Shown here piece by piece: positions 3,763-32,483 of a DNA stretch of 64,000 bases. The notes under the pieces are model-generated. The model was not told where the DNA came from. It was given only the letters and a program-made list of their open reading frames with translations, and ran no database searches. Each line of letters begins with the position of its first letter. Within the stretch, counting starts at the first letter, position 1. This stretch comes from a virus (lineage: Duplodnaviria > Heunggongvirae > Uroviricota > Caudoviricetes): IMG/VR virus record IMGVR_UViG_3300042322_000140, positions 228 through 64,227 of that record; one strand, written 5' to 3'. The position numbers were made by a program, and so were the translations under genes.

Positions 3763-6700
3763 TTATTCTTCTTCTGATATTTCTGCCCAGCCTCCTTCTT
3801 TTAGATCATTTTCATCTATAAGGATAGCTATTGGTATTAATGACTCATCTTTATTATAGTAGTCATATGTATCTCTCAAAGATTTAAGGTTACCGGCATT
3901 CCATAAATCAAATGTAGGTTTTGCTCCAGTAACGTTCTTCAAGAAGTATATTTGTTGTTTTGTCATACCTTTAAACCTACCTCTATCTTCTACTTCTGTG
4001 TCGAATGCTCTGGTGATGTTAAATAAGTTTTCTAATTTTTGTACTCCTACTAGAGGCTCTTTTACAGAACTATAAAATTCACCAATTACCCCAAACTGTG
4101 TTGAAGATGTTTCTGTGGTTACCCTTTCTAACATATAAGCCGCAAATTGTGCTGCCCACATATCTTCTTCATCATCTGCCCAGTGTCCAACTCCAATTGT
4201 TAATAAAAACAATACTGAAAGGAATGCAAAATCAACCATTACTCTCCTGATGTTTTCTCTTTGTACATCATCACCATTTAAGTACTGGCTTTTTAGTTCA
4301 CCTAATGCAGATTTCATACCTCCTTTTTGTAAACCGTTGTTAAAATTTTGTACAAAAAAGTTATAAACTGAGAAGTAAGTACCCTCTTCCATTTGACCGG
4401 TTTGTAGGTTTAAGTGTCTTCTCTTGAACCTATTTGCTGCAGATATAGCTAACCACCCTTTGTGTGTCATTGCAAATCTACCTAGTACGTCTCTTTGCAT
4501 AGAGGTTCTTTCCTCGTTGGTAATCATACCATCAATTCTTTCTACAACTTTCTTTAATTTAGTTATAACCCCAATCTCAATGTTTCTAAAATCTTTTTGA
4601 AACTGCTCATCGTTAGTTCTACCCATATCTCTAGCTAAACTATCATAGTCATAAGCTACTGTTCCGTCTTTTGGTGACATGTAGTTGTACAGGGTTTTAT
4701 CTCTAAGTAAGTCCCATTGATTTGCCAGGTCTTTTTTAGTAGCTGACGGATTTACTGTTTTATATAAGGATTCAAATTTTTTAGAATCTACTAATTTACC
4801 TTCATATATTCTAAATCCATATAACTGAGAAAGCATTGCTTTAGACAAAGGTGCAAAGTTACCTGCTGTGTGTAGTATATACTTTGATTTAGCTAATACT
4901 CTAGGCCCTTTTGAGTACATAGAGTTTTCAAATTTATTACTTAAATCAAATACACCAAAATATTCTCCATATATAGATAGCTTAGATTTTGAGTCTATTT
5001 CTAAACTTTCCTTCATTGCAGGAAAAGCTATCTTTCTAAACTCTTTTGAAGCTAAATTCATAGATCCAGAATCTACATACTGACCAACATATTTTTCTAT
5101 AATCATAGATGCCTCAGCTGTAAGCCATGAAGTAACTGGTACTACAACATTCAATGCAAGAGAGTTATCTCTAATAAGTTTATGCAACATATTTATTATC
5201 TTAGTTACATCAATTTGCCCTAGTACTGGTACAGTTACTCTCCAGTTTTTTCTTTCTTTTATACCAAATAAATTATGGTCGTAGTAAGATTGAAACATTT
5301 TGTAAGTGTTTGTAGATGTAGCATCTTTACCTTCTGGATAAGCTCTCTTTAAAACTAAATCATTAAGTGTAGCAAACTCAGAGAATCTTTCTTTTCTAGC
5401 TTTATATAACTGAGATTGTTGTGCAAATAACATAGAGCTATAGAATAAATCTGTAGATACGTCTGTTTCTTCTTCTAATTTTTTCAAAAAGTACTTCGGT
5501 ATAATTTTCATGTTTGTTGCTTTTACTAAAGCCTCTCCCTCTACTTCTTCACCAAATGCTTGCTCATCTACTCTAAATCTAACAGCATCTCTCCACCACT
5601 CTTTTATAGTCCCTCTTTTACCTTTTATTAAATCATTAGCTTTTTCTAGGCCGGTTTTTGAAACTTGTGGTGCTAAGTATAAGTTGTGTGTACCTAGTTC
5701 CCCATAAGATCTTAAACTTTCTCTTTGGAACTCCATGTATTCCTTGTACAAACTAAATAGTTTTTGATTAGTTGTAGCTTGAATATTGCCTTCATTATCT
5801 AATATAGGGTTATTGTCAGCGTCTAACACAGGTCTAAAAAGGTCTACGAAGTTTTTATTCAAGTACTTACTAAGTTTAGGTTGTTTAGAACCACCTTCAA
5901 AATCCTCTTTGTAATTTGGGTTCTTAAACTTAATTTCCCCCATTTCGTAGTAAGAAAAATTATTACTAACTTTTACATCTCTTCTTTTGTTTAGCTCTGT
6001 TACTAATGTATACACATTCTGATTTCCATTTTTTAATTGGTCGTAAAAGTTTTGTAAACCTACTGGGGCAAATGCTTTATAATAAGGTGCTAATTTTGTC
6101 TCTGCATATTTTAATTTTGCTGCTGGAATATCATCCTTATTTAATTCAGACAATTCGTTTATCCCCACAGTTCTTAGTATTAATGCTTTGTGTCCCTCTG
6201 ATACTCTTAACCCTTTTAATACATCATCTAAAGCGTCTGAAAATTGTCTTGCTTTCTTAGCATTTTCAACTGTCATATTTTCAAGAGCAAATTTGTATTT
6301 GCCTTCAGCAGTTGTTATTCTTGCGTCAGCTAACATATCGTAGTAAGACTGATTAGGCGTAGACTCAGAAACTCTATTCTCCTCTGTACCTAGACTAACT
6401 TTATCTTTAAATATAGTGTATAGCTCTACGGCCATTCTGTCTATTTCTTCAGATAATTCTATAACTTTACTTCTTTGTTGCGTTGACATTTCTTCAGCCA
6501 TCGTGTTAGTAAAGTTTCTAGAGTCTTGGTATTGTTTTAATATAGATTTTCTAGATTGTAGTTTGTCTTTATAAGATTTTATTTTCTCTATCCAAGCTTG
6601 CTCTGAATTTGGGTCTTGGCTATATGAATCTATATAAGTCATCATGCTTTCTGATACATCAAAGTTATTCCAGAAATCATTAGAAAAACCTACGCTTGAG

Positions 6701-9486
6701 TTTAATATAAAAAATTCAACTGCTGCTTCTCTACCTTCTTCTAATTCAATCTTTTGAAGCTCTTCTAGAAATTTAGGTGCAAGTTTTTCAATATCTATTT
6801 TTTGCCCACCAGAAAGTCTTGCCTCTTCTTGCTTCTCAGCTAAAAAAGCTTGGTCTAATTTATTTATTTCAAAAGCTATCTTAGCCTCCTCACTTACAAC
6901 TCCTTGAAGTTCATAGTATATTCCAGATACTTCTATAGAGTTTTCAGATGGGTTTTCAACTGGTTTTAGACCTGTTTTAATATCCCCAAAACTTTCGAAT
7001 AAAGATTTTAAACTTTTTCTTTTTAAGTTTATAGCATCTAATTCATACTTATCTTGAGATGTGTACCTTGGTAAACCTTTTTCATTTTTAACTCTAGACA
7101 TAAGACTACCTAAGTCTGTAGACAATAGTCTAAGCTCTGTTTTAGTAGTGTCACTTATTCCAAGTTTTTCATATTTATCATCTCTATTTTGATAATAATC
7201 TTCTGTAAAACTTCTCTCCACTCTTGAATTAACTGCATCATTAACTTCTTTTTCATAAGCTTTTTCTGCTGCCTCATCTGTTATTTTTGGTAAGTCGTAG
7301 CTTTTTATACCCTTTATTATATCTTCGTCAGACATTGCTGTACCGCTATGAATCTTATAAGCTTGTAACTTTATATCTGTAATGTCTTTTTCAAAAGCGT
7401 TAAAATCATATAAACTTGTTACATAACCTCCTTTTTCCATAAATTTAGGTAGGTCAGCTTCTGTAAAACCAAGTTTACGAATTGTATCTTGAAACTGTTT
7501 TGCTCTTACTAAATAGCTTTGTTCTGCATCTAGAGTCATATCTGCAATAACACTCCCTAAAATATTAAGTAGTGGATCATGTGCATGTGTGATTTGACCA
7601 AATGCTGAATAAAATAATTGTGTATCTCTAGTAGCAGTAGTAACTGCATCTCTTAGTTTTTGTCTAACTTCGTCATCAAAACTGTGTCTTATCATTAACC
7701 TGTCTATGATTCTGTCTAGTACATCATTTTGTACGTTATCTGCAGCCCCGGTTACAGCTGATACTTTTACAACAACTGCGTTAATATCATTTACAATATC
7801 TGCTAAATCTGCATCCTCTTTTGATAGGGCTACTAATCTAGATAATACTGGTACAATGTTATCTTTCAAGCCTTGTAATACAATACCCTCTTCATTAGAT
7901 AAAGTCTCACCTCTTCTTTTAGATGTTTCAATAGCTGTAGATACATAGTCTGCTTGTCTTTTTGCTAAAGATATTAAGTCAAGTATTGAGCTTTTTGTAA
8001 TAGCTTTATCTAATGCTGAGTTTAACATCTGTATACTAGCTGCAGATCCTCTACCGGCATTTCTAAGACTTCTTTCTTGGTCAAGTAATGATTTTACCAG
8101 TCTTTTTACAATAACATTCTTAGTATCAAGAACCACGTTTCCGCTTGCTTGTTGCTGATACATTCTAAAAGTCTTAGTTTTAGTTTTGTCTAAGTTTAAA
8201 TACTTATTTACATCTTTGGTTAATAGCAAGTCCTCTACTTTTACCGTTAGTGCCTCTAAGTCAGTATAGAATGTATCCTTTACAACTACAGAATTAAAAA
8301 ACTTACCTAAAAGCTCAAAAATTCTTTCTATTATTGTTTTGTGTATTTCTGTTTTACCCTCTGTATTAAATCTTTCTTGTATAGCTTTTGCCAGTTCTTT
8401 ACCTAATATCTCTCTTCTAACTAAGTTTTCAACTTGTTCAGTAGACATACTTGGGTTTTCTCTTGTGTACAATTCTCTATAAGATTGTGAAAATTCTACA
8501 TAAGAACTGGTTTTGTTTATATTTCTTAATAGGCCCTCTATCTCAGCATCATCCCAAGTTTCAACTATGAAGTGTGAAGTCTCTTCTGCTAATCCATCAA
8601 TAGTCATCAGACCATCTTTGAATGCAATTACTTGTCTAGATACATCTAATAATGCTTGAGCTGATGGATCAACACCATTTCTAATATTATAGCTATTTAT
8701 GTAGCTGTTTATAGATGTCACCTTGACACCCATACTGTTTAAAAGATCCAAAAGATTCATTTTTAAAGACTCTTCATTAGTGTTCAAAGACTCTGTTGAG
8801 ATACCTGATGGTAATGCATCTTTTACTGCATTGTTTATCATAAGCTCTACAGCTTCATCTTTACTAACAGACTTTTCTAACTCTCTTAGAGTAGTAGCCC
8901 TGAAGTCTTCTAAAGACATTGATTTATTACCTACTTGTACTTTATTCTTGTTGTTCAGTAATTCAATTCTACCGTCTTTGTAGATCTTAAAGTTCTTTCT
9001 GTTTAGGTTGGTTTTGGCTTCCTCCTTTATGATCTGTTCATTTACTATTTGTAATGGCCCATGGTTACCAGCTGCTTGGTGGTAAGTTTTTCCATTTTCT
9101 ATTATTTTTTGATCAGAAAGAATATCACTTTTGATCATGTTGTTTATAAACCCTTCATAGCTAGCCGGGTTTGTGTTTGAAGACACTGAAACTAGGTTTT
9201 TAAACGTGTTTTCAATACCCATACCTATCTGTATATCCCCTCCTGCTGAGTTCTGTAAAGCTTCTTTGTAAGAATTGAACGTCACACCTTTATCAGAAAT
9301 AAAAGTGATAGGGCTTTGGTCGTTTATTTTTTCTGAATAAACATTTTTAAAAATAGACAAAGCTTCTTCTAAACTTTCTACATGTGGAAGTCTAGCTATT
9401 TGTTTGAATAGTCTACTTTCTTTACCTTCTAGGTCAAAAACGTTTTTTATACTACCGTTTTTATTATAATTAATCGTACAGCTCAT
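3763..9486 (-). CDS. Giant virion ejection/cargo protein C (1907 aa), crAss-like
   Basis: Last of three giant ORFs; LAEETSHF zincin-like motif; GRFAMTHKGW...EEGTY C-terminal motif; hydrophobic helix near C-terminus; only Cys is at residue 3. Confidence 0.7.
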   Translation of the reverse strand: MSCTINYNKNGSIKNVFDLEGKESRLFKQIARLPHVESLEEALSIFKNVYSEKINDQSPITFISDKGVTFNSYKEALQNSAGGDIQIGMGIENTFKNLVSVSSNTNPASYEGFINNMIKSDILSDQKIIENGKTYHQAAGNHGPLQIVNEQIIKEEAKTNLNRKNFKIYKDGRIELLNNKNKVQVGNKSMSLEDFRATTLRELEKSVSKDEAVELMINNAVKDALPSGISTESLNTNEESLKMNLLDLLNSMGVKVTSINSYINSYNIRNGVDPSAQALLDVSRQVIAFKDGLMTIDGLAEETSHFIVETWDDAEIEGLLRNINKTSSYVEFSQSYRELYTRENPSMSTEQVENLVRREILGKELAKAIQERFNTEGKTEIHKTIIERIFELLGKFFNSVVVKDTFYTDLEALTVKVEDLLLTKDVNKYLNLDKTKTKTFRMYQQQASGNVVLDTKNVIVKRLVKSLLDQERSLRNAGRGSAASIQMLNSALDKAITKSSILDLISLAKRQADYVSTAIETSKRRGETLSNEEGIVLQGLKDNIVPVLSRLVALSKEDADLADIVNDINAVVVKVSAVTGAADNVQNDVLDRIIDRLMIRHSFDDEVRQKLRDAVTTATRDTQLFYSAFGQITHAHDPLLNILGSVIADMTLDAEQSYLVRAKQFQDTIRKLGFTEADLPKFMEKGGYVTSLYDFNAFEKDITDIKLQAYKIHSGTAMSDEDIIKGIKSYDLPKITDEAAEKAYEKEVNDAVNSRVERSFTEDYYQNRDDKYEKLGISDTTKTELRLLSTDLGSLMSRVKNEKGLPRYTSQDKYELDAINLKRKSLKSLFESFGDIKTGLKPVENPSENSIEVSGIYYELQGVVSEEAKIAFEINKLDQAFLAEKQEEARLSGGQKIDIEKLAPKFLEELQKIELEEGREAAVEFFILNSSVGFSNDFWNNFDVSESMMTYIDSYSQDPNSEQAWIEKIKSYKDKLQSRKSILKQYQDSRNFTNTMAEEMSTQQRSKVIELSEEIDRMAVELYTIFKDKVSLGTEENRVSESTPNQSYYDMLADARITTAEGKYKFALENMTVENAKKARQFSDALDDVLKGLRVSEGHKALILRTVGINELSELNKDDIPAAKLKYAETKLAPYYKAFAPVGLQNFYDQLKNGNQNVYTLVTELNKRRDVKVSNNFSYYEMGEIKFKNPNYKEDFEGGSKQPKLSKYLNKNFVDLFRPVLDADNNPILDNEGNIQATTNQKLFSLYKEYMEFQRESLRSYGELGTHNLYLAPQVSKTGLEKANDLIKGKRGTIKEWWRDAVRFRVDEQAFGEEVEGEALVKATNMKIIPKYFLKKLEEETDVSTDLFYSSMLFAQQSQLYKARKERFSEFATLNDLVLKRAYPEGKDATSTNTYKMFQSYYDHNLFGIKERKNWRVTVPVLGQIDVTKIINMLHKLIRDNSLALNVVVPVTSWLTAEASMIIEKYVGQYVDSGSMNLASKEFRKIAFPAMKESLEIDSKSKLSIYGEYFGVFDLSNKFENSMYSKGPRVLAKSKYILHTAGNFAPLSKAMLSQLYGFRIYEGKLVDSKKFESLYKTVNPSATKKDLANQWDLLRDKTLYNYMSPKDGTVAYDYDSLARDMGRTNDEQFQKDFRNIEIGVITKLKKVVERIDGMITNEERTSMQRDVLGRFAMTHKGWLAISAANRFKRRHLNLQTGQMEEGTYFSVYNFFVQNFNNGLQKGGMKSALGELKSQYLNGDDVQRENIRRVMVDFAFLSVLFLLTIGVGHWADDEEDMWAAQFAAYMLERVTTETSSTQFGVIGEFYSSVKEPLVGVQKLENLFNITRAFDTEVEDRGRFKGMTKQQIYFLKNVTGAKPTFDLWNAGNLKSLRDTYDYYNKDESLIPIAILIDENDLKEGGWAEISEEE

Positions 9487-9506: not shown

Positions 9507-9538
9507 CAAAATTAGTATTTTTATTTGTCATATCCAAA
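9507..9538 (-). promoter_or_regulatory. Bacteroidota sigma70-type promoter for giant C
   Basis: Minus strand TTTG-N20-TAATTTTG, 20 nt upstream of ATG 9486. Confidence 0.75.
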
Positions 9539-9544
9539 TACATT

Positions 9545-9574
9545 AAAAAGTTAAGGCTACTTTTCAGCAGCCTT
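9545..9574 (-). terminator. Intrinsic terminator after giant B
   Basis: Minus-strand RNA AAGGCUGCU-GAAA-AGUAGCCUU followed by AACUUUUU. Confidence 0.7.
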
Positions 9575-9580
9575 TTCTTA

Positions 9581-12500
9581 TTATTGACAGTTGAAATATT
9601 CATCGTCTATCTGTTTTAATTCTTCTTTAGAATAGTAATTTTTTGATGTCTTAAACACCTCTGGGCTATTTTCCAGGTATTGGTACTTGTTAAAGTTTAC
9701 ATCTGACAAAGGTTTTTCTATACCAGTTAGTTTAAAGTTAGGGTCTACTGAAGGCAGTTTGTTGTAAAACTTAACGTTCCCTGCTTCGTATATCATTTCA
9801 AAAACCCCTTGTGTTGTTCTTACAAATGTATCTGTTTCATTCTTTACAGCTAATACCCCATCTTCTATGTATCTGTAATCTCCGGATATTTTCTTAGCAC
9901 TTTCAGGATTATTTGCAAAAAACTCTCTTTGGCTTGTTTGGCTGTCATAGTCTTCAAATACTAACTCTTCTGATGTCATTCCTAAATTCAAATTCTTAGA
10001 TATTGCATCGTAGTCTGCCAAGTCTTTTTCAAATTCTAATGGGATAGACATTATTGCTTCCTCTTTAGATAAAGGGTCTTTTTCTACTAATTCTATTCCT
10101 TTTCCTGTAACCTTGAAGTACTTATTGTTTGTCTCTAGTATAAATCTATTGAAGTCTTTTACAAACTCTGTAACCAAATACTCTGGGCTAGATATTACAC
10201 TACCTAAACTATCTGTTGATACTTTTATAGGAGTCACTACTAATGGGAAGCCAAAGAACTTTTTATACAAATATATCTTAGCCAGCTTATCAGGGTCTAC
10301 TTCGTAATCTGCTACTTCAAGATTTGTTACTTCTTTTTCTACAAAGCTTCTTAAGTCTTCAATATTAGCTACTTCATCTGGTAACATTTCAGGATACTCT
10401 AGCATTGTATCGTAAAGCTCCTCTAAGCTCTGCTCCTCTGTTTGTCTATAAATATCCCCTTGCTTTTTGACTAAACCAAAATTATCAAACATTTGATACT
10501 CCGACATATCTGATTCAACAACTGTATCAAATTCATTATCTGTTTCTATTACAGCTGATTCTTCTGTGCTTGTATCAAATAACTCTTTATAAATAGTAGA
10601 GTAGTTAATTATATTTTCCTCAGTTGGTCCTGTTTCTAGTAGATTTTCCATAGCGTCTAAAAACGCAAGTATATCTTCTCTACTATGAGATAACACTTTA
10701 GTAGGAATGTCTCTTAGGTCAATACCGTTTGTCATAGCTTTCTTTTTAATAGAGGCTAATAATTTTACTACTGCATTAGGGTTTTCGTCCCAAACTTCTT
10801 CAGAAAACTCTTCGTTTATATATCTAATTTCCTCAGATAATTTAGAATTTTCTTCGTCAATCAATGTATTAGCTACAATGTTTTCTATGTCTTCTGCCTT
10901 ATCAACTAACACCCCGTCTTTTGTAACCTTTATATTAACTAATTTATGATTCTTAGCTATATTATCTACTGAAGATTTAAAGTTAGAGTCTTTTGCATAT
11001 TTATTGCTAAGATCTGGTAACAAATTATCTGAGATCTCTTCTTCAGAAATACCAGCTATATCTCTAGCTAACTCTGCTTCAACTATAAATGGGTTTGCTA
11101 TTTCTTGTTTTCCAAATATGTTTAAGCTTGTTCCAGTAAGTGTTATAAAGTTTTTATTGTATTCTATCTCAAAAGGTTCTGTATTTTTTAATTTTAAATA
11201 AGCTTCTTTTATACTTCTTTGTAAGTCTAATGAGCTCATTATTTTTGTTGCCTCATACTTATTAAACACCCCACCTCTTTGTAAAGATACTAAATTAAAA
11301 GATATAATACCAGATTTTGTAATAGCACTTTCTAATTTTTCTAAAAGCTCCGATGAAGAGTTTACTCCAAGTGCCATAGCTGCATTTCTTGCAACAACTT
11401 GGTCCTCTAATGATAAAGACTCTGTAGAATTATTTTTAAATTGCATCAAATCTTTAATCGAAGGCTCTCCGTTTTCATCATAACCATTTGGTGCAAGCTT
11501 TCTCGCTGGTCTTTGCATTTCAAAATCAGATGTCTTTTTATACCCAAGTGATGTGTAGAACTTTTCAAGTCCGGCATTAGTAGTGTTTTTATCTCTACTA
11601 GAAATAGTCAATACTGTACTTTTACCTATTGAGTCTGTGTATTTTAAAGCTGTATTAAAAGCTTCTCTTGCTCTACCCTGGCCTCTAAATTCTTCTGGTG
11701 TTTCTACCAATTCCATTTCTATTTTGCCAGTAGGTTTTTCAGTAATTGGGTTTACTTCATTTCTAAAATAAACTTTACTTCCATTTACATCTGCAACCAT
11801 TCTTTCTCCAGCACTTTTTATGTTTAGTTCAGAGACCCAAGAAGGTAATAATCCTACTTTTTGTTCTGCAAAACTCATCATATCATATACTTGGTTAGTC
11901 AAGATTTTAGCTCCCTCTGTATCACCATTTCTTCTAAGTACTCTAGCTTTATCTCTTAATTCGAAAGCTTTGTCGTTTACTCCAGAGAAATTAACCCAAG
12001 AGTTTTGACCTCTAGTCTCAGTTGTCATGGCAAGTCTAGCTAATGGAGAGTACATTCTAGAGTGTATATTCCATGCGTTTTCTTCTCCTAATGCACCAAA
12101 ACCATTTCCAAATTTAGCATGCCCAAAGAAATCGTGTACAAATCTAAATATGTCATTTGCTAATAAAGGCTCCCCATTTACATCTTTAAACTTAGTCTTT
12201 TGTAAAAGTGGGTTGTCTTTTCTTTGTTGAGCTGTTATAGCCTCATCCCCAAATCCAGACTCCGTTGAGAAAATCTTCATACGCTTATTACCACGTAAGT
12301 CAGCTATCATGTCGGCAGAGTTTTCATACGGCTCCGAATTATTTATCTCTGGTTTGTAACCATAGCTTAGTATTTTTTTATACTGGTCTACAGTCTCTTT
12401 TACCATAGCTTTGTAAGCCGCTTTTGTTTTAGTATCGTTTGGTGTAGGTTGCATCTTATCAAACTCAGCTGCTATACTTTTGCTATTTTCTTTATTTAAT

Positions 12501-15500
12501 TCCTTTATCGGTTCTATTGCATCAATGCTTATACCTTTCTCTAACATGTATTCATCAGCTATTTTTGATGCGTCCTCTAAAGGTGCATTAAATAACTTAT
12601 TACCATCTACTATAGAAAAGTTTACATAGCTGTCAGAATCATTAAATCTCTTTTTGGCTTCTTGGCTTTTCTCATATACTTCTCTAAAGTCTCCAAAATA
12701 CATATTTTTGACTCTTGCATAAGCACGTATGATATTCATACCACCAAAAGTTCCGGCATCTAAATGCACAGGTTTTCCGTCTTTTATGCCCCAATTAGCA
12801 ATATCTCCTAAATCACCATAGATTATGTCGTAGTTTAAATACTCTTCTAATCCATAGTTTTTAAGTACTTCAACCAAGTCTGGGTTTTTAGTATCAAAGT
12901 CTGCTTGACTATATCTGTATAGTTCCATAAGCATTACCTCTGCATCTTCTGTACCATATTGTTCACCATTCACTATGTTGTATATAGGAATTTGATCATT
13001 TGGTTCAAGTTGAGTTAACTTTTCAGCTATAACATAATTAAGGCCAGTTTCATAAACTTGTGGAAGGACACCTTTACTTATAAGCTCTTCATTACCTTCT
13101 TGCATGTTTTGAGCTAGTCCTCTGGCATTATTTGCTACTTTTAGCACCTTACCCTCACCTAAATCAAAAACAACTCTGTCAGAGCCTTGAGATAACTTTA
13201 CTAAGTTTGGTATATCAAATCTATCTCTTGCTACTTGGTTTACGTCATATTTATACCTAAGATAAGTACTATCTATACCTAGATTTTTTTGCATTCTGGA
13301 TCCAGATAATAATTCAGTGGCAGATGCTGATCCAAACTCTGCTAGTGTCATTGCTGATACTTGTTCAGCTGTGTAGTTTGATAACCCAACTGCTGCTTTT
13401 ATAGCACCCCAAACACTTTTTAACCACTCGCTTAAGCTTCCTTTTTTATTGCTTAACAATAATTTAGCCCCTTGATCACCTATTACTTGTGCAAGGACTT
13501 CATTATTAAACTCTTCTGAACCTTCTTCTAGATCTGGTTGTGTGTTTTTTACAATATCTATGTATTGTTGAGCTTCTTCTTTATTTTTTTCAACAAGAGA
13601 TAGTCCAGATTTATATATGTCTTCTCTGTTTTCTTTTAGCCAATCTAGATGTAAATGTCCAAATTCATGTATTGGTGTATCTAACCCCATTACATCGTTG
13701 TTCAAGTACACATCTCCTCTATAAGTAAAACCTGCAGTACTTAGTTTTATACCTTTTTCTAATAACTGTTTGCTAAATTTAATATCTTTGTTTATAGGCT
13801 CAACTAAAGTTTTATCTTTTATTGCAAATACAATTTGTCCTTTGTTACCTATATCTTCTCCTTTTATAATTTTTGCATTTTCTACTTCTTTTATAAAAGC
13901 GTCAAGTTCTTCTTTAGGTAATTCTATTCCTTCTGCTAGTAAAGAGTATCTAATTCTAGTTTTCCACTCTTTTAAATCAGATAGATTGTCTTGGTGAACT
14001 GTTAATAAACCTTGGCCAAAACCTACTTTTTCTACTCCCCATCTTTTATTCCAATTATCTAGGTCTAAAATATCTGGGCTTTTGATTTTAAATTCTTCTA
14101 TATTTCTACCAAAAACTCCGGCATATTTTTTTTGTACAGCAAAGTATTGTGTACCTTTATAGTTTGAATCAAACTCTCCATTTATGCCTCTGTATACTGC
14201 AGGTAAAGATTCTATTTTATATTCTCTTATTAAAGCTGCTGCTTCTTCTTTTACTTCTTGTTCTGTTGAGTTTTCTGATAAGTATACCTCTAAATATGAA
14301 CCATCCACTAAATTAACTTCCCAGAAGTCTTCTTCTGTGTTAAAAAATAAAGAGTCTACATCTTCTTGTGACATAGTTACTTGCTTAGCTATTTTTGAAT
14401 CTAAACCAAGGTTTACTAACTTAGCCTCTATCTGAGAGTTAGTCATTTGGAATACATTATTAGCTAACCCACTTAGTTCTAGCTTAGATATAATCTCTTG
14501 TGTTATCTCATTCTTAGAAGTCTCACTCAAGCTTTTAGAAAACATAGGTATAGACGACTTTAACTCAGAACGCATCTTATTTGTTATCTCAATATAAGGC
14601 TGTTCTGCTAAAGTCAGTTTGTCTGCGTTTATTTCTTGTGGTACATATTTTTCAAAATACTTTCTAGCTCCCCCTGCTGTGTTATCTAAGTCTGAATTAG
14701 ATAGTGTTTCTTCATCAACATACTCTACAAATTCTCCATTAACTCTTAAAACAAATCCATCCTCTTCTTCTGTAATTTCTACATTAGATTTTTCTGCAAA
14801 GTTAACTGTTTCTAATTTAGCATCTTTGTCAAATCTTTGAGCTTCTTTTTGTGCTACTTTTGTTACAATATTGTCATAGAAAGATTTCATACCTTCTCCA
14901 CCTACTTCTAGGTCTAAGCCTGAGTACTCTTTACCTTGACCAGTTGACTTTAAGTCTCTTATTTCATCTAAGTCATTTACTACTTTTTTTGCAAACTCTT
15001 TCCCAAAAAAAGATTCTAATTCTGCATCATCTCTTACACCTTTTGCACTTAAAATTTTACCGTCTTTTTTTACCTCGGCATTATATTTAAACAAACTACT
15101 TCCAGCATAGCTTATCTCTATAGCATCTACTTGATTAGATAAACTATACATACTAGAAGATTGCTGTCCTGTAGCAAAAGCTACACCACTGTACCCCTCT
15201 TGTGCTGCCATTTGTAAAACACGTCTTGTAGCTAAGCCAACCCATTGATCAGTATTTTTATAAGGCATTTCTTGTAAGCCAGACTGATCAATATCAATAA
15301 TATCTCTTTTTGCAGCAGCTATTTGTCTTTCTAAAGGTGTTACTTTTGAGTAGTAGTCTTGTATTACTCTAAAACCTTCTTGTTCAACACTTGGTAGATC
15401 TTCTACCCCAATAGTATTTTCAAGACTTTTTCTAAAATCTAATTCGTTTGCTCTTCTTTCTATAGTTGTATCAGCAACCTCTTTAGAGCCATAGTAGTTA

Positions 15501-16990
15501 TTTTGTCCTGATACTTGTCCATCAACATATATTCTATAATCTCCATTGTTCTCTTTTACTGCTTCTACTCCTGTAGAATCACCTAACTTTTTACCAAAAG
15601 AGTTTACAGATTTAGCTATAGTTACATTTCCATACTCATCAATATTTGTAGTATAGCCTTTACCATCATTATAAATAACTCTCTGATAAGCATCCTTATC
15701 TATTTTTTTCTCTTCTTTAATCTTTAAAAGCTCCTCTGTTAAAGCTTTATATTTAGCTAATGCTATATCATTTTTAATTTGTAATTTTCTATCAGTAAAA
15801 CCTATCTTACGACCAGCTTGTGCCCAATCAGATTGTATCTCATTTACTACCAAAACTTTATCACCATTTGGTAAACCTTTCTCGTTTAACCTTATGTGAG
15901 CCAAAATATTACCTTCATCCCAATGAGATGATTTATACTCTTCCTTAATATAAGGTGTTAAGTTATTTCCGATAGCTACTTTATCTCCAAAAATCTGGTT
16001 TATTTTTTCTATTTCTGTTCTTATTCTTGCATGTTCTTCTCTTTGTTCCTGGGTTGGTGCCTGCCCAAAGGGTATACTTAGTATAAGTTTTTTTTCAGAT
16101 ATTTTTATTGATTTATATTGCTCAATTGCAGAATTTAATTTAGTGTCTGGCATCGTCAATAATATCTCTCTATAGTTTTCTCCCCCCTTTAGTTGATAAC
16201 CTTGGTATTTTACATCTCCATCTTCTCTGTCTAATACTTCTTCAATTGCTGCTTTTTTTGCATTTTCTTGTGCACTATAATAATCAAAGTTTTCATCAAA
16301 AGTATCTTCATCTGTTAAACCTATTTGGTCTAGTGTTATATAAGGCATAATTAAATTACCTTGGCCGGAGTACTTTATGTTAAACCCATTACCGTCAAAC
16401 TCTGCGTCTAAGTCATTAATGTCTATTTCAGGCTTACCCTTACTAACATCAACAATGCTAATTTGATTTGATTTAATATAATCTTCTACAACAGAAGCTG
16501 GTATGTTACCTGCTCTAGTATTGTTTTCTGCTACATAGCTGTTTAAATAATCTGCAAGTCCTATCCACTCAAGTTCTTGATTTACATTTTTTACTCCACC
16601 ATTCTTTTGTGTGTCTGTAAGCTGTTTTAACCAACCTTGTGTGTTTTTGGGATTTAAGTCAGTCAAATTGTTGATAGCAGACAAAGCATTTGAAAAGTAA
16701 GTACTATCTGGAGCTATTCTACTAAACTTTACAGCGTCTAGATTTGTTGCTAAATCTTTTTCAGATTTAACTAAATTGTTTACTCTATTTTTTATAGATG
16801 TAACTTTTGCTTTCACCATATCCTTGAAGTCTTCAACTTCAGTCAAGGCATAAAGATTTAAGGCGGTCTTTTTATTACCGCCTGTTATATTCACTAATGT
16901 ATCAAATAATTTACTTCTACTGCCATTTGCAGCTTCCACAAAATCAATATCCCCATTCTCGTCTTTATAAATTCTACATTTTAAGCTCAT
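9581..16990 (-). CDS. Giant polyvalent virion protein B (2469 aa): EIQSD-type domain, ART-like, zincin, kinase-like, HDFFGH domain, GNAT
   Basis: Motifs ELEWIGL/GGENYREILL/EIQSDW, VYRG..YFA..YA, TPIHEFGH..NEVLA, KVLKV..YGDLGDIANWG..HLDAG, FVHDFFGH..GEENAW..ETRGQNSWVN, EFRGQG..LEKFYTSLGY. Confidence 0.75.
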   Translation of the reverse strand: MSLKCRIYKDENGDIDFVEAANGSRSKLFDTLVNITGGNKKTALNLYALTEVEDFKDMVKAKVTSIKNRVNNLVKSEKDLATNLDAVKFSRIAPDSTYFSNALSAINNLTDLNPKNTQGWLKQLTDTQKNGGVKNVNQELEWIGLADYLNSYVAENNTRAGNIPASVVEDYIKSNQISIVDVSKGKPEIDINDLDAEFDGNGFNIKYSGQGNLIMPYITLDQIGLTDEDTFDENFDYYSAQENAKKAAIEEVLDREDGDVKYQGYQLKGGENYREILLTMPDTKLNSAIEQYKSIKISEKKLILSIPFGQAPTQEQREEHARIRTEIEKINQIFGDKVAIGNNLTPYIKEEYKSSHWDEGNILAHIRLNEKGLPNGDKVLVVNEIQSDWAQAGRKIGFTDRKLQIKNDIALAKYKALTEELLKIKEEKKIDKDAYQRVIYNDGKGYTTNIDEYGNVTIAKSVNSFGKKLGDSTGVEAVKENNGDYRIYVDGQVSGQNNYYGSKEVADTTIERRANELDFRKSLENTIGVEDLPSVEQEGFRVIQDYYSKVTPLERQIAAAKRDIIDIDQSGLQEMPYKNTDQWVGLATRRVLQMAAQEGYSGVAFATGQQSSSMYSLSNQVDAIEISYAGSSLFKYNAEVKKDGKILSAKGVRDDAELESFFGKEFAKKVVNDLDEIRDLKSTGQGKEYSGLDLEVGGEGMKSFYDNIVTKVAQKEAQRFDKDAKLETVNFAEKSNVEITEEEDGFVLRVNGEFVEYVDEETLSNSDLDNTAGGARKYFEKYVPQEINADKLTLAEQPYIEITNKMRSELKSSIPMFSKSLSETSKNEITQEIISKLELSGLANNVFQMTNSQIEAKLVNLGLDSKIAKQVTMSQEDVDSLFFNTEEDFWEVNLVDGSYLEVYLSENSTEQEVKEEAAALIREYKIESLPAVYRGINGEFDSNYKGTQYFAVQKKYAGVFGRNIEEFKIKSPDILDLDNWNKRWGVEKVGFGQGLLTVHQDNLSDLKEWKTRIRYSLLAEGIELPKEELDAFIKEVENAKIIKGEDIGNKGQIVFAIKDKTLVEPINKDIKFSKQLLEKGIKLSTAGFTYRGDVYLNNDVMGLDTPIHEFGHLHLDWLKENREDIYKSGLSLVEKNKEEAQQYIDIVKNTQPDLEEGSEEFNNEVLAQVIGDQGAKLLLSNKKGSLSEWLKSVWGAIKAAVGLSNYTAEQVSAMTLAEFGSASATELLSGSRMQKNLGIDSTYLRYKYDVNQVARDRFDIPNLVKLSQGSDRVVFDLGEGKVLKVANNARGLAQNMQEGNEELISKGVLPQVYETGLNYVIAEKLTQLEPNDQIPIYNIVNGEQYGTEDAEVMLMELYRYSQADFDTKNPDLVEVLKNYGLEEYLNYDIIYGDLGDIANWGIKDGKPVHLDAGTFGGMNIIRAYARVKNMYFGDFREVYEKSQEAKKRFNDSDSYVNFSIVDGNKLFNAPLEDASKIADEYMLEKGISIDAIEPIKELNKENSKSIAAEFDKMQPTPNDTKTKAAYKAMVKETVDQYKKILSYGYKPEINNSEPYENSADMIADLRGNKRMKIFSTESGFGDEAITAQQRKDNPLLQKTKFKDVNGEPLLANDIFRFVHDFFGHAKFGNGFGALGEENAWNIHSRMYSPLARLAMTTETRGQNSWVNFSGVNDKAFELRDKARVLRRNGDTEGAKILTNQVYDMMSFAEQKVGLLPSWVSELNIKSAGERMVADVNGSKVYFRNEVNPITEKPTGKIEMELVETPEEFRGQGRAREAFNTALKYTDSIGKSTVLTISSRDKNTTNAGLEKFYTSLGYKKTSDFEMQRPARKLAPNGYDENGEPSIKDLMQFKNNSTESLSLEDQVVARNAAMALGVNSSSELLEKLESAITKSGIISFNLVSLQRGGVFNKYEATKIMSSLDLQRSIKEAYLKLKNTEPFEIEYNKNFITLTGTSLNIFGKQEIANPFIVEAELARDIAGISEEEISDNLLPDLSNKYAKDSNFKSSVDNIAKNHKLVNIKVTKDGVLVDKAEDIENIVANTLIDEENSKLSEEIRYINEEFSEEVWDENPNAVVKLLASIKKKAMTNGIDLRDIPTKVLSHSREDILAFLDAMENLLETGPTEENIINYSTIYKELFDTSTEESAVIETDNEFDTVVESDMSEYQMFDNFGLVKKQGDIYRQTEEQSLEELYDTMLEYPEMLPDEVANIEDLRSFVEKEVTNLEVADYEVDPDKLAKIYLYKKFFGFPLVVTPIKVSTDSLGSVISSPEYLVTEFVKDFNRFILETNNKYFKVTGKGIELVEKDPLSKEEAIMSIPLEFEKDLADYDAISKNLNLGMTSEELVFEDYDSQTSQREFFANNPESAKKISGDYRYIEDGVLAVKNETDTFVRTTQGVFEMIYEAGNVKFYNKLPSVDPNFKLTGIEKPLSDVNFNKYQYLENSPEVFKTSKNYYSKEELKQIDDEYFNCQ

Positions 16991-17010: not shown

Positions 17011-17042
17011 CAAAATTAGTACTTTTTTTTGTAAAAACCAAA
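17011..17042 (-). promoter_or_regulatory. Bacteroidota sigma70-type promoter for giant B
   Basis: Minus strand TTTG-N20-TAATTTTG, 20 nt upstream of ATG 16990. Confidence 0.75.
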
Positions 17043-17059: not shown

Positions 17060-20000
17060 TTAACAAGGTTCATTTTTAGCATCATCAACATCAGATTGTT
17101 GATCTGTATTTAGTCTAAAATACTCATCTATTAAGGATTGTACTAAAGGGTGATCTGATAAATCAGACTCTTGTGTTGTAAGAGCTTCATCAAGTAACAT
17201 CATCTTATTAAAGATCTCTGTTGCTTTTTCTAAGCTTAGGTTTCCAGTAGCTATAGCATCTGAGTACCAATCCCTTTTTATTTCTACCATTTTGTCTAAG
17301 TTTATGATTGGCTTAGGTGAAGATAGTGGATTGTTTTCTATGTCTATCGCTAAAGAAGCTTCTGATACTAAATTCTCTTTTGTGTGTTCTGTTGACATCC
17401 ATGTAGATACATCTACTGTTTGTTTTACTTTATTTAGGTCACTTATTGCTCTTAGTAACGGTTCAGAAAAATTCCCATTCATGTCAACTAAAGTCTGTGC
17501 GTCTTCTCCAACATGGTATAAATTATAAGAGGCTGGAGATAGTCCATTTACTGCTAAAGTTTGATTGAACTCTAAAACTGCAGATCCTAAATTTTCAGTC
17601 TCCATTAACTTTTGTACTGCTGTGTCCCCTGCATTTGATGCCAACTCTTTTAATTGTATTGGGAAAGCTACTAAGTATTTACCTTGATTAAATATAATTA
17701 CTGGTAACCCAGTTTTGTTAAGGTGATTACTTATGTAATCTTTTCTTACATTTTTAGTGTTACCTTTAAGTACTAATTTTCCATCTTGTATATAACCGTA
17801 GTCAACAACAGCTTTTGGAGAAATATCAAAATACTTTATAGTACCACCTTCCATATTAAAGTTTGGTACACCTAAAAAGACATGTTTAATAAAACTTTCT
17901 TTTGGTAATTGTATGTCTATATCTGCTTCAGTTCCTAATCCTTTCTCTTTTACTATTTTTAAAGCCTCTTCTCTAATAAGTAAGAACTCTGAGCTTTGGC
18001 TAGTATTGTAGTTAGCTTTTAGATCACCAAATTTTCTACCTCTAACATCTGATACGTTAATCTTAAGTTGGTCTGATAATAATTTTTCTATCTTTAGAAC
18101 TTCCGGAGACATTTTACCATCTTGGTCTATCATTACATCTCTGTCTTCAAGATCTTGTATAGCCTCTTGGTATTCTAGAATTATCTTTTGATTATACTCA
18201 TCGGTCAAATCTAGACTAAAGGTTACAGTGTCTCCAGGTACCATGTTGTAAAGCTCCATAGGTGAATAATCACTAGAGTCTTTAAAGTCTGTCTCCATTA
18301 TCTCCCCCGTTTCATTGCTATAAACTGGCGAATACCCTGAATCTTTAGTAAAAGAGTTTTCCATGTAACCCATGTTAGCCTCTCTTAATACTTGCTCAAC
18401 CTCTGATCCTTTTTTTATAGTTAGGCTTCCACCTTTATCTATAATTATAGTAGCTGTATTACCGTCTCTGAATGTTAAGACAAATGTAGCACCGTACTTA
18501 ACATTTTCAGCAACTTCTTGTATTGATATGTCTTTTGCTGTGTTTGGTACAGTTACTGTTTTATTATTAACAACTTCTGTTTGTACAAAAGCTACTGTAT
18601 CTGCTAAATCCACTCTTGACAATAAGCCAGGAAGTGTCAAATGAGATATTGTAGTTCCAAATTTATTTCTGTTTATAAATACATTTTGGTAAACTTGTAA
18701 TACTTCTTCATTTCTAATAGCTTCCCCTGAATCGGTTTCTTTTGGCTCTTTCTTGGATATATTTACAATCTCTGTTTCAGTAAGTTCACTATTTATCTTA
18801 GGGTCTACAAACTGATTTACTATAATATCTTGTAATAACATATCACTTATAGATATACCAGTATCATTAGCTACATTTTCTAGTAACCTCCAATTAGCTA
18901 ATCTTTCGTTAAGCTCTTGTAATCTTTTTATCTCTGCTTTTTTCAAAGAAGGTCTTGTAGTTGGTGTTAGCCTATTCCAAGTATAAGGGCTTTTAAAAGA
19001 TATTGTTTTATTGTCAATCTTAGGGTCTGCTAAAGCTCTTATTGCTAAGTCTTCGTACTCATCTAACTCTTCCTCTGTCATCATAACAGGTACATCTGTA
19101 CCATAATAGTCTAAAAGGTATGGACTGTTTTTGATCATGTCTACAACAGTTTCTTTTATAGTCTTCTTTCGAACTTCTTTTTTGGTTGTCTGACCATTTT
19201 TAGGTGCATATTTCTTTTCAATAGCGTCTAACTTAGCTTTTCTTTCTTTTTCAAGGCTTTCTGTACTATTAGAACTATTTCCACCAACAAGATTCATCCT
19301 ACCGTTTGAGAAAGTAGCTAAATTAAATGATGGTGGTATTCTTATACCTGCATCATTTGGGCTAACTGCCATTATATGTTCCATCACAATATCTCCAAAA
19401 TACTTATTTATATTAAGATTTTGAGTATTTATACTATTTGGGAAACCCATTATTACTAACTTGGTAGCTCCTCTATGATTTATTTTACCGTCTATTAAAG
19501 CCTCTATTGAATTATATAAACCCTCTTTTGTAGTATTTACATTTGTGGTCCCTTCTGCCGAAGGTCCTGTATTAAGACCTGTTTTAAGTATCCCTTCTAG
19601 TGTTACTTCAGATGTTGTAAGATGTGATAAAAAGAAGAAGTCGTCTGGTAAACTTTCGATTCTATCTTTTAATTCTTTCTTGAGATTATCTTTTTCTTCT
19701 TTTGATAACTTGTTAAAGTCTTCTATATTTTGTATAGATGTACTTGGGGTATCAGAGTTTGATATTTTAGAATCATACTCATCATTTACTTTTTGTATTT
19801 CTGCTTGTTTTTTAGCTTCTTTTTCTTCTATTGTAGGCTTATTTATTTTAGCACCTTTTTCGTTATCAATAACTTCTTTTACTGGTTCTAAATTCTCTAA
19901 CCCTTGTACTATTGTATCTTCTGCTCTTTCTATAGAGCTTTCTGATAGCCCTCTTAAAAATTCTACAGTTATGTCGGTAGAGTTCTTGCCTCTTCCTAGT

Positions 20001-30284: not shown

Positions 30285-32483
30285 TTATTTTCTACTAAAT
30301 AACTTTCTTCCTAAAAACTCTGCATCTTTTCTATTTTTTGAGTCTATAACTATAGTTGTATCTCCTTTTTTAAACCTATCTGTTAAATAATTAATATCCG
30401 GTTTTCTACAGTTAACACAGCCATAGCTAGCATATCTATTTTTTGCCTCTTGTGAGTATAGTGGATTTCTGTTCTTAAAATCATATGTTACATGCAATGC
30501 TACGTCTTTTGATTTTGGTGCTGGTTGTCCAAAAGCTGGTATAGGGTTTATCCTAAAACCTGGTTCTCCATATATATCAGCTTTAGGGTCCATTACATAT
30601 GCACCTACAGGTGTTCCCCTAGATTCTGGGTGTGTTTCTAAATAGTGAACGCCCCTATTATTAACGTTTTGATCCGGGTTTAAGGCTGTTAATACTGGAA
30701 ATGTTCTTGTCACTACTCCATCTTCTACTACATAACTAGTATTACTTCTCTTATCTGTAATAACTCCATTTTGTAGGTTTTGAGTGTTCCCAATATTACC
30801 TGTTATAAAATCATTAAATATATCTAACCCACTTCTATTTGATAAAGGACTCCTGTTTTCTTTATTTAATTTGTTAACTGTTTTGGTATCATTTTTAGCC
30901 TTTCTTATAGGTGCAGCAACAGATTTTTTAGTTACAGGTGGTTTTCTATCCCATAGTGGGTTAATAGGCACTTGAGGAAAAAACTCATTAGTATTTTCTG
31001 TATCCATTTTTTTATTACTTTTTATTTTAAAATTTTTGTCTTTTAGTTGGCTTAGTAACTCTATATTAGAATCTCTTGAGCCGTCTGTATAACCTAATCT
31101 CTTAGCTTCAGACCAAGGGAGTCCTGTTTTTTCTACCCAGTTATCTCTTGCTGAGTTATGGTCAAAATTACCCCCTTCTTGGAATTGTTCTTGAGGAAAC
31201 ATTATGTTTTGTTTTTTTTCCACTGCTGGATGTCTTGTAGTTCTTTCCCATTCATCTGCTTCTTGCCATGTTTTAAAAGGGCCTCCTAAGTGCTCTCCTG
31301 TTTTTTTAAATTCTTCAATAGGATCTGCTAATGGTTTACCATATTTAAAACTAGGAATCAAATAAGCTGGTTCTCCATTTTCTCCACCTATAGACATAGC
31401 TAATTCAGAACTAGGTTCAGCATAAGGTATTCTATACCCTTCTGGTAACTTTTCGCTAGTTGGTTGTAAGAAAGTTAGACTTCTGCCGCCAGTTTGGTAT
31501 TTTGACACCTTGGTTACACTTTTGCCTGTACTTTGTCCACCACATTTATGGCAGTTATACATATCTTTTTCCGTAGATTCAGATTTGTCCCATGACCAAC
31601 CACAGTTAGTACACTCTACTTCTCCTTCTATCTCTCCCCCATCTTTGTAAGCTGGCTCTTGTGGTATTTGGTTTTGGAGTTGCTCGTATTGTATAGCTTC
31701 GTAATTAGGTAATTCTATCTGTGGTACTTGGTAAAACGATGAGTCTAATCCGCTATCTTGTTGTTGTTGTTGTTGAATTTGCTGTTGTTGCTCTTCTTGT
31801 TTTTGTCTTAAGGCTGTAGCTTGGTTTTGTTTAGTTTGTAATTCTGCTAAAAAATCTTTTTCTTTTTGTTTTTGTAATAGCTCTGCCTTTGCTTGCTGTG
31901 CTTCTATTTCTTCTTTAGTAGTACCTATCTCTGGAGCTGTTATGTTTGCTCCTGGATCTGTAAATAAATTCATTGACATATCTGATTCATCCTCGTAATC
32001 ATAGTTTTCAGATGCAGATGGTTTTAGACTCATTTTTTTAGATAGCCAATTTTTTACAAAACCTACGCTTTTACCTTGTACAAAAGGATTATCATGTATT
32101 GCTCTAGTTGACATTACATCTGAAATTGGTCTGTTATCTGCTGTTTTATACAATTTTTTATAACCAACAGCCCCTAAAAAATGAGCCCCATACAAATCTG
32201 CATGGGTTGGCTCTATACCTAAGTTTTTTTTAAGGTAGCTTATATTACTATTAGTAAATCTAACAGCTGCTTCTTGCTGTAGTTTTGTATTAAATCTGTC
32301 TTTCCAGTCATAGCCTAAGCCTGTCCATGTATCCTTTGTAAACTGGTAAAGTCCAGATGCACTTCCAAATGGGTTTTCTGCATACTTCTTCCCTGCACTT
32401 TCTGAACCCCTTACTTTTGCAAAGTAGTTTGTCAAATCGTTTTCAAGTTTTTTTACTTTCCCTGTTTTATCTTCTATGTACAT
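30285..32483 (-). CDS. Virion cargo protein: N-terminal lytic transglycosylase, Zn-ribbon, C-terminal L,D-transpeptidase (YkuD-like)
   Basis: GSES..ASGLYQFT..TW..YGAHFLG (lysozyme-like/SLT); CTNC..CHKC; ALH-x21-SYGCVN. Confidence 0.75.
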   Translation of the reverse strand: MYIEDKTGKVKKLENDLTNYFAKVRGSESAGKKYAENPFGSASGLYQFTKDTWTGLGYDWKDRFNTKLQQEAAVRFTNSNISYLKKNLGIEPTHADLYGAHFLGAVGYKKLYKTADNRPISDVMSTRAIHDNPFVQGKSVGFVKNWLSKKMSLKPSASENYDYEDESDMSMNLFTDPGANITAPEIGTTKEEIEAQQAKAELLQKQKEKDFLAELQTKQNQATALRQKQEEQQQQIQQQQQQDSGLDSSFYQVPQIELPNYEAIQYEQLQNQIPQEPAYKDGGEIEGEVECTNCGWSWDKSESTEKDMYNCHKCGGQSTGKSVTKVSKYQTGGRSLTFLQPTSEKLPEGYRIPYAEPSSELAMSIGGENGEPAYLIPSFKYGKPLADPIEEFKKTGEHLGGPFKTWQEADEWERTTRHPAVEKKQNIMFPQEQFQEGGNFDHNSARDNWVEKTGLPWSEAKRLGYTDGSRDSNIELLSQLKDKNFKIKSNKKMDTENTNEFFPQVPINPLWDRKPPVTKKSVAAPIRKAKNDTKTVNKLNKENRSPLSNRSGLDIFNDFITGNIGNTQNLQNGVITDKRSNTSYVVEDGVVTRTFPVLTALNPDQNVNNRGVHYLETHPESRGTPVGAYVMDPKADIYGEPGFRINPIPAFGQPAPKSKDVALHVTYDFKNRNPLYSQEAKNRYASYGCVNCRKPDINYLTDRFKKGDTTIVIDSKNRKDAEFLGRKLFSRK

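Follow-up and report, generated by a model that had tools for sequence, protein, structure and literature searches.

We analysed a 64-kb stretch of viral DNA (the window; bases 228-64227 of the 128,227-nt IMG/VR record IMGVR_UViG_3300042322_000140), which carries the structural and cargo block of a phage on its minus strand. Three adjacent giant genes of this block, all on the minus strand, are transcribed in the order C, B, A: giant C (17060..22639; 1859 amino acids (aa)), giant B (9581..16990; 2469 aa) and giant A (3763..9486; 1907 aa). Our subject is B, a polyvalent protein and predicted virion cargo that occupies the slot in which other crassviruses encode their virion RNA polymerase (vRNAP). 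B was delineated from its open reading frame (ORF), translation, homologues and module map, and the first link, C, and the last link, A, from blastp and cysteine maps together with, for A, a profile of its N-terminal leader. The record is linear and ~90% complete, and blastn of the locus against a phage collection gave no match. Among cultured phages, phi4:1 and phi17:2 of Cellulophaga, which belong to the 'Epsilon' crAss-like group, are its closest relatives; the phage is a marine, and probably a flavobacterial, member of this kinship. Yutin et al. (2021; PMC7886860) assigned phi17:2 to the Epsilon group and reported that the polymerase block is absent from the whole of that group. Despite this loss, two members of the block, C and A, are still present here.

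As judged by blastp, C is a homologue of phi4:1 gp038, and its N-terminal part matches crAss001 gp47 and phi14:2 gp67; A aligns end to end with phi4:1 gp035 (29% identity), and its C-terminal part resembles crAss001 gp49 and phi14:2 gp65. The C-B-A order thus mirrors the order g067, g066 (the virion RNA polymerase (RNAP)), g065 of phi14:2, which puts B exactly in the polymerase position, where a preliminary description of the window, made from the sequence by a model without database searches, had placed it. The same C-like, B-like, A-like order is kept on two metagenomic contigs. That description had also spoken of three giants; all three are real ORFs, but two more lie at 35418-42653 and 49531-56223, upstream of C, and encode a 2411-aa muzzle-like homologue of phi4:1 gp042 (43% identity) and a tail fibre of 2230 aa that bears a Peptidase_S74 chaperone domain.

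We looked for an RNAP in B, in its neighbours and in the rest of the genome. The vRNAP of phi14:2, gp66, has the motif DFDID at position 1361, and all three aspartates of its DxDxD signature are essential (bioRxiv 10.1101/2020.03.07.982082). No DxDxD motif is present in A, B or C. Neither gp66 nor crAss001 gp50 belongs to a Pfam or PHROG family, so that no ready-made family search exists for the crass polymerase; a 682-position hidden Markov model (HMM) of the gp66 catalytic core (aa 950-1650) was built from 117 database homologues and run with filters off. It scored crAss001 gp50, the positive control, at 196 bits, whereas nothing anywhere in the 128-kb genome scored above 3.1 bits and nothing in the phi4:1 and csAssE-Sib loci above 3 bits. 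Pfam RNA_pol_Rpb1_2 (PF00623) and Sigma70_r2 were absent from the genome in searches whose controls worked. A search of the genome for the T7-type family (PF00940), which had no working control, and a single-sequence search with gp66, which had no positive control, were both empty. Fold searches with the modelled part of B (aa 870-1850, to which AlphaFold-type modelling was limited) gave no RNAP match. The earlier statement that none of the three giants has a convincing RNAP catalytic motif thus holds for the motif itself and for the gp66-core profile, and, as far as sequence can tell, the ~90% complete genome has no detectable RNAP signature of the crAss, T7 or multisubunit type. Among the giants only the 2411-aa muzzle-like protein has a DxDxD (DIDSD, at aa 1480). 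We rejected it as a chance occurrence, because about one such motif is expected (by our estimate) at that size and Asp content and because phi4:1 gp042 is a homologue of this protein.

The ends of B link it to the polymerase. At its N terminus, ~60 residues with strong conservation in the B orthologues form a leader (16811..16990, minus strand; aa 1-60, with Cys5 and SKLFDTL at 26-32) that is common to A-type giants and crassvirus vRNAPs. In a search of 415 ORFs, drawn from this genome and from four loci related to it, a leader HMM (E <1e-3) found, besides the two sequences used to build it, only four extreme N-termini, those of A (E 1e-4), phi4:1 gp035, the 752-aa middle protein of csAssE-Sib and the csAssE-Sib homologue of A. 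In more than 50 of 120 vRNAP homologues it also matched residues 5-48, with a best E of 4e-7. Reciprocally, B scored 18.8 bits (E 3e-5) with an HMM of 115 vRNAP N-termini, against 10.7 bits for the top decoy of reversed sequence. By these profile matches, a ~50-aa N-terminal leader appears homologous between B and the virion polymerases of crassviruses, a relationship that is newly added here. In csAssE-Sib (L004:23071-29488) a 286-aa frame of its own, overlapping the 1885-aa gene as annotated, encodes the leader of the A-homologue; this points to a frameshift, an error in sequencing or a wrongly placed start.

The cysteines follow a simple pattern. B has only two, at positions 5 and 2468; the single cysteine of C is its last residue, and the single cysteine of A is at position 3. 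Hence the first link has a cysteine at the C terminus only, the middle link at both ends and the last link at the N terminus only (position 3-5), a rule that also holds in phi4:1, phi14:2, crAss001 and two metagenomic relatives, and partly in csAssE-Sib. The vRNAP homologues have an N-terminal cysteine in 115 of 120 cases, a C-terminal one in 114 of 120, and a median of zero internal cysteines; the C-terminal cysteine is present in 58/58 B orthologues. A limited look at the crassvirus literature found no mention of the rule. In one related locus (L005:6859-9930), an extra 1023-aa ResIII/SF1-type helicase is encoded between the C-like giant and the B orthologue, and its only cysteines are at 4 and 1023; with a cysteine at both ends, it resembles a further middle link. 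The leader and the terminal cysteines that B has in common with the polymerase suggest that the two are the same kind of link, and that the slot is an exchangeable cargo position.

The C-terminal fifth of B points to the virion. The conserved C-terminal module (9584..11503, minus strand; aa 1830-2469, including Cys2468) is homologous to a virion protein: aa 1956-2468 of B match phi4:1 gp037 (26% identity, E 3e-25), which is annotated as a virion structural protein from tandem mass spectrometry (MS/MS), and the adjoining phi4:1 giants were likewise found in virions by MS/MS. An HMM of the module also matches the csAssE-Sib 752-aa protein and the C-terminal end of phi4:1 gp038. Both phi4:1 gp037, together with that end of gp038, and the csAssE-Sib protein are orthologous to the module and lie in the same slot; the csAssE-Sib protein has the same leader as B. 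The entire enzyme array of B is lacking from both the 517-aa gp037 and the 752-aa csAssE-Sib protein; in phi4:1 the slot holds the 517-aa module only. The first ~85 residues of the module are at the C-terminal end of gp038 (aa 1871-1955) and the rest is gp037 (L001:11692-19102), the two genes overlapping by 17 nt, so the module is split or differently attached in phi4:1. The HMM did not match the vRNAP homologues; only the leader and the cysteines, then, link B to the polymerase. In crAss001, gp47, gp49 and gp50 are capsid cargo (PMC10172136).

Comparison of the middle giant across relatives, which the preliminary description had suggested as a check for domain turnover, revealed swapping of modules. 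The 57 B orthologues that carry the C-terminal module have 18 architectures. Near-constant are the leader, the zincin (53/57), the HDFFGH domain (54/57) and the GNAT (55/57), and variable are the EIQSD module (19/57), the module at aa 871-1066 (23/57) and the kinase-like module (31/57); other orthologues insert LPD23 or ART-PolyVal. The polymerase itself is not free of such additions: the vRNAP homologues P0154, P0226 and P0150 contain NADAR, AlkB-like 2OG oxygenase and RecD-like helicase domains above Pfam cut-offs, and ART-PolyVal is found in vRNAP homologues just below the cut-off.

Between leader and C-terminal module, B is a string of enzyme-like modules. Pfam, NCBIfam and PHROGs searches with the whole of B and with ten segments gave no family above threshold, the sole signals being two unnamed PHROGs and sub-threshold GNAT matches, and a PDB sequence search (with B, A, C and the 2411-aa protein as single sequences, and with two profiles) gave nothing. 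A database search with aa 900-1850 found 506 proteins, and mapping them onto B gave sharp module boundaries: leader 1-~60/120, EIQSD 98-830, an unassigned module 871-1066, zincin 1066-1288, kinase-like 1288-1460, HDFFGH 1460-1720 and a conserved block that starts at 1725 and runs through to the C terminus. Proteins of more than 3000 aa that carry Pfam Kinase-PolyVal, ART-PolyVal, LPD23, LPD38 or DUF3293 domains contain some of these modules too; the EIQSD, zincin and HDFFGH modules align with P0063 (Kinase-PolyVal, ART-PolyVal, LPD23), and the HDFFGH module also with P0086 (LPD38) and P0078 (DUF3293). B joins disparate activities in one polypeptide (a GNAT fold, a conserved zincin motif, kinase-like motifs and a metal-site domain), and it is a polyvalent protein. 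The assignment to the large polyvalent protein class made in the preliminary description is borne out by this sharing of modules and by the LPD- and ART-PolyVal-like fusions of the HDFFGH relatives. Its domain list stands for the EIQSD, HDFFGH and GNAT units, in part for the zincin and the kinase, and finds no support for an ADP-ribosyltransferase (ART), as described below.

The HDFFGH domain (11831..12613, minus strand; aa 1460-1720) shares 55-68% identity with parts of over 100 giant polyvalent proteins. Its residues R1616, H1619, D1620, H1624, E1636, E1637 and H1643, as well as TRGQNS at 1659-1664, are invariant in 97/97 sequences. In the AlphaFold model of aa 1440-1850, the mean predicted local distance difference test (pLDDT) value is 84, and the domain itself is mostly above 85. 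It had no Pfam, NCBIfam or PDB sequence match, and its structural matches are phage 'hypothetical' clusters only (template modelling (TM) score ~0.8); BFVD annotations describe its relatives as LPD proteins, as ART-PolyVal-like or as fusions with MuF head-morphogenesis domains. In PDB fold searches with the model, the neighbouring GNAT accounted for every hit listed. We read the conserved residues as those of a predicted metal-dependent enzyme; conceivable readings of HDFFGH itself are a T7-type motif C, a classical HD hydrolase or an iron site of the aromatic-hydroxylase kind. The HDxxGH domain was seen in 223 phage records, and the phages infect cyanobacteria, mycobacteria, Gordonia, Rhodococcus, Streptomyces and Bacteroidota; no Pfam family covers it, and its annotations are discordant ('lysin', 'RelA/SpoT', 'crystallin motif protein').

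The adjoining mini-GNAT acetyltransferase domain (11507..11809, minus strand; aa 1728-1828) is established by its fold. It matches the anti-CRISPR acetyltransferase AcrVA5 (6iuf) in VIA at Z 13.3, showing 1.9 Å root-mean-square deviation (rmsd) over 91/95 residues and 16% identity; dozens of further GNATs follow at Z ~10-11, and Foldseek agrees. Five GNAT Pfam families are sub-threshold on B (E 0.008-0.06), and RGQGRA at 1769-1774 is a Q/RxxGxG/A motif of the acetyl-CoA-binding type. The likeness to AcrVA5 is a fold match and not evidence for an anti-CRISPR function.

The other modules are less firmly assigned. For the zincin-like metallopeptidase module (13283..13771, minus strand; aa ~1074-1236), H1108, E1109 and H1112 of HEFGH (1108-1112) and E1164 are near-invariant over 72 aligned homologous segments, which upholds the HExxH motif, but fold matches are weak (in VIA, anthrax lethal factor Z 5.0, ArdC 4.1, PPEP 4.0). 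The minimal protein-kinase-like module (12671..13243, minus strand; aa ~1250-1440) has the motifs GEGKVLKV (1278-1285), GDLGD (1392-1396) followed by N1399, and HLDAG (1409-1413), all conserved among orthologues. Every top Foldseek match (APH(4)-Ia, TkArkI, APH(2''), OspG, Rio2, Bud32 and CK2) has a kinase-like fold, but the matches are weak (E 0.016-0.25); VIA gave Z <=5, for the N-lobe only, and the module matches phrog_4301 and has no Kinase-PolyVal match in Pfam. The stretch GDLGD..N...DGK...D.G recalls the catalytic region of aminoglycoside phosphotransferases, a resemblance that we take to be a lead only.

The EIQSD module (14501..16699, minus strand; aa ~98-830, with the motif at aa 384-388) is a discrete unit that recurs in other polyvalent proteins and is 52% identical to aa 2354-3086 of P0063 (3546 aa). 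It has no Pfam, NCBIfam or Atlas assignment, and an ESM Atlas feature search with it returned unnamed clusters only (scores <0.9). The unit at aa ~927-1067 that had been called ART-like lies in a discrete module (13793..14380, minus strand; aa 871-1066) gained and lost as a unit, for which ART-PolyVal (PF18760) gave no match at E<=10, and no ART fold was among the Foldseek or VIA matches covering it, with a model of low confidence there. The YRG, YFAV and EEF elements span only ~30 residues, and EEF is modelled as a helix at low pLDDT.

We scanned the genome for a Bacteroidota-type promoter motif (TTG-N17-21-TAnnTTTG). Of 54 sites, 31 fall in the 7.7% of the genome that is non-coding, and 27 are within 150 nt upstream of a gene on the same strand; 19 of these 27 are on the plus strand, mostly in the small-gene region at 77-125 kb. 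Promoter-like sites, seen in the scan and by direct reading, precede both B (17011..17041, minus strand; TTG-N19-TAATTTTG) and A (9507..9537, minus strand), the latter 3' of a hairpin and T-run. The hairpin and then the T-run, at 9540-9580, lie directly 3' of the B stop codon, with the promoter-like site of A next, so each giant appears to be transcribed as a separate unit. The enrichment of Bacteroidota-type promoters is consistent with reliance on host RNAP, a dependence that would fit the sequence motifs.

Taken together, these results make it likely that the cargo block of this phage keeps its first and last giants and that its middle link is a polyvalent effector rather than an RNAP, with leader and C-terminal module serving packaging and the enzyme modules acting on the host. 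B then consists of a polymerase-type leader with its cysteine, a variable enzyme string, the near-constant HDxxGH domain and mini-GNAT, and a virion C-terminal module ending in a cysteine. We propose that the leader and the C-terminal module, with their terminal cysteines, direct packaging and ordered ejection; that the enzyme modules act in the host cytoplasm right after injection, where they may modify host proteins or disable defences; that the zincin possibly self-cleaves B before the enzyme modules act; and that early genes may be read by host RNAP from the abundant Bacteroidota-type promoters. A broader picture, which we hold only tentatively and think somewhat less likely to be right than wrong, is that in Crassvirales and Epsilon relatives the giant cargo forms an ordered, possibly disulfide-linked chain, in which the leader marks the middle and last links and the middle socket is exchangeable between vRNAP, effector array and helicase.

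Several observations weigh against the reading of B as an injected effector that has replaced the polymerase. Only a homologue of its C-terminal fifth has been detected in virions, not B itself. The leader matches are short (~40 residues) and modest (up to 23 bits), and the fold matches of the kinase and zincin modules fall short of significance (E >=0.016; Z <=5.8). The search for a double-psi beta-barrel fold covered aa 870-1850 of B only, and in a linear, ~90% complete record some gene could be missing. The promoter motifs are AT-rich within an AT-rich genome, and their presence is silent on which polymerase reads the early genes. Middle and late phi14:2 genes also use host RNAP, so host-type promoters alone leave room for a virion polymerase.

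Three other explanations were weighed. B might be an ejectosome or structural protein whose modules serve the particle, the zincin in maturation or self-processing and the others as envelope-penetration aids or decayed relics. This would suit a C-terminal module whose homologue is annotated as a virion structural protein, a phage such as phi4:1 that manages with the 517-aa module alone, neighbouring cargo genes that encode cell-wall enzymes (SLT and YkuD), and the self-processing that Iyer et al. (PMC5512222) propose for metallopeptidase domains. However, the catalytic-type residues of the zincin, HDFFGH and kinase-like modules are (near-)invariant across many lineages, the GNAT retains its acetyl-CoA-type RGQGRA motif, the kinase, GNAT and HDFFGH domains have no obvious substrate in the particle or periplasm, and unrelated phages have polyvalent proteins with these modules too; we regard a purely structural role as unlikely, though it is the strongest of the three. 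B might also be a late cytoplasmic multi-enzyme protein that is never packaged, for example one modifying host or phage components during assembly, and merely lies inside the structural operon. B does have its own host-type promoter and a terminator-like hairpin after its stop codon, and packaging of the full-length protein is a prediction. Yet its leader and terminal cysteines are those of proven virion proteins including gp66, the homologue of its C-terminal module is present in virions, the synteny between the two cargo giants is strict in relatives, and HDFFGH relatives are fused to MuF head-morphogenesis domains, which leaves this the least probable of the explanations.

Hardly more probable is that a virion or early phage RNAP persists, either unrecognisable in A, C, the EIQSD module or the C-terminal module, or encoded in the missing ~10%, and that B is an addition to it. 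Over structurally equivalent residues, crassvirus polymerases and cellular RNAPs share only 8-9% identity (bioRxiv 10.1101/2020.03.07.982082); A, B and C contain large unassigned parts, the linear record is incomplete, and some vRNAP homologues bear effector-type modules beside the polymerase. Against this, A, B and C lack DxDxD, the core HMM that readily finds the distant crAss001 gp50 finds nothing here, and the cargo block, the constant site of the polymerase, is intact and contiguous; the whole Epsilon group is without the polymerase block according to Yutin et al. (PMC7886860). What best accommodates these observations is still the reading of B as an effector in the polymerase slot.

The loss of the polymerase block (Yutin et al. 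2021, PMC7886860) and the polyvalent protein class (Iyer et al. 2017, PMC5512222) are already known; this analysis adds the signature of leader and cysteines, the lack of a polymerase core at profile level and the measured module turnover at a fixed socket. Like the proteins of Iyer et al. (PMC5512222), B is one giant with a zincin-like hub, a kinase-like unit and a GNAT, is encoded among virion late genes in the minus-strand structural block, has modules in common with Kinase-PolyVal, ART-PolyVal and LPD-bearing proteins, and is predicted to be co-injected with DNA. Unlike them, B itself reaches no Pfam PolyVal or LPD threshold, its most conserved module, HDxxGH, is without a family assignment, and it is built on a crassvirus-specific chassis of leader, virion C-terminal module and terminal cysteines that is undescribed in that work. 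With phi14:2 gp66 (PDB 6VR4) and crAss001 gp50, B has in common the position, a similar size, the ~50-aa leader and cysteines at the termini only, and, as noted above, some vRNAP homologues also carry accessory enzymes. In contrast to gp66 and gp50, B lacks DFDxD, does not match the profile of the two-barrel core, has no detectable similarity beyond the leader and ends in a C-terminal module unrelated by sequence.

As a capsid-packaged enzyme delivered with DNA, which we infer it to be, B would also resemble N4 virion RNAP, T4 Alt and P1 Dar. Those injected enzymes start transcription or modify or disarm the host. B is unrelated to these proteins, as are the packaging signals, and the locus lacks a detectable polymerase as well as any confirmed ADP-ribosyltransferase. 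No phages of the human gut are more abundant than crassviruses, whose relatives are also common in seawater; to our knowledge, how infection is launched has been worked out only for lineages that inject an RNAP of their own. From the locus one can see what fills this socket in a lineage without the polymerase, and if our reading of socket and chain is right, the Epsilon lineage traded transcriptional autonomy for injected host-reprogramming enzymes. Since the polymerase and the effector array have the same end features, these are a candidate packaging and ejection signal for cargo, and the locus is a natural platform for enzyme swapping. The HDxxGH domain, present in phages of cyanobacteria, actinobacteria and Bacteroidota, is a priority for biochemical study. 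A zincin domain has also been described in the vRNAP of coliphage N4 (PMC5512222).

Two further observations concern genes near the cargo giants. A 732-aa protein encoded at 30285-32483 of the window has an N-terminal transglycosylase-like region (PHROG) and a C-terminal YkuD L,D-transpeptidase domain (Pfam E 6e-10), and is probably a cell-wall-acting cargo protein. In phi4:1, gp031 (L001:2908-4059), a few genes downstream of the cargo block, is a PARP-type protein (PF00644) according to the annotation of the record itself.

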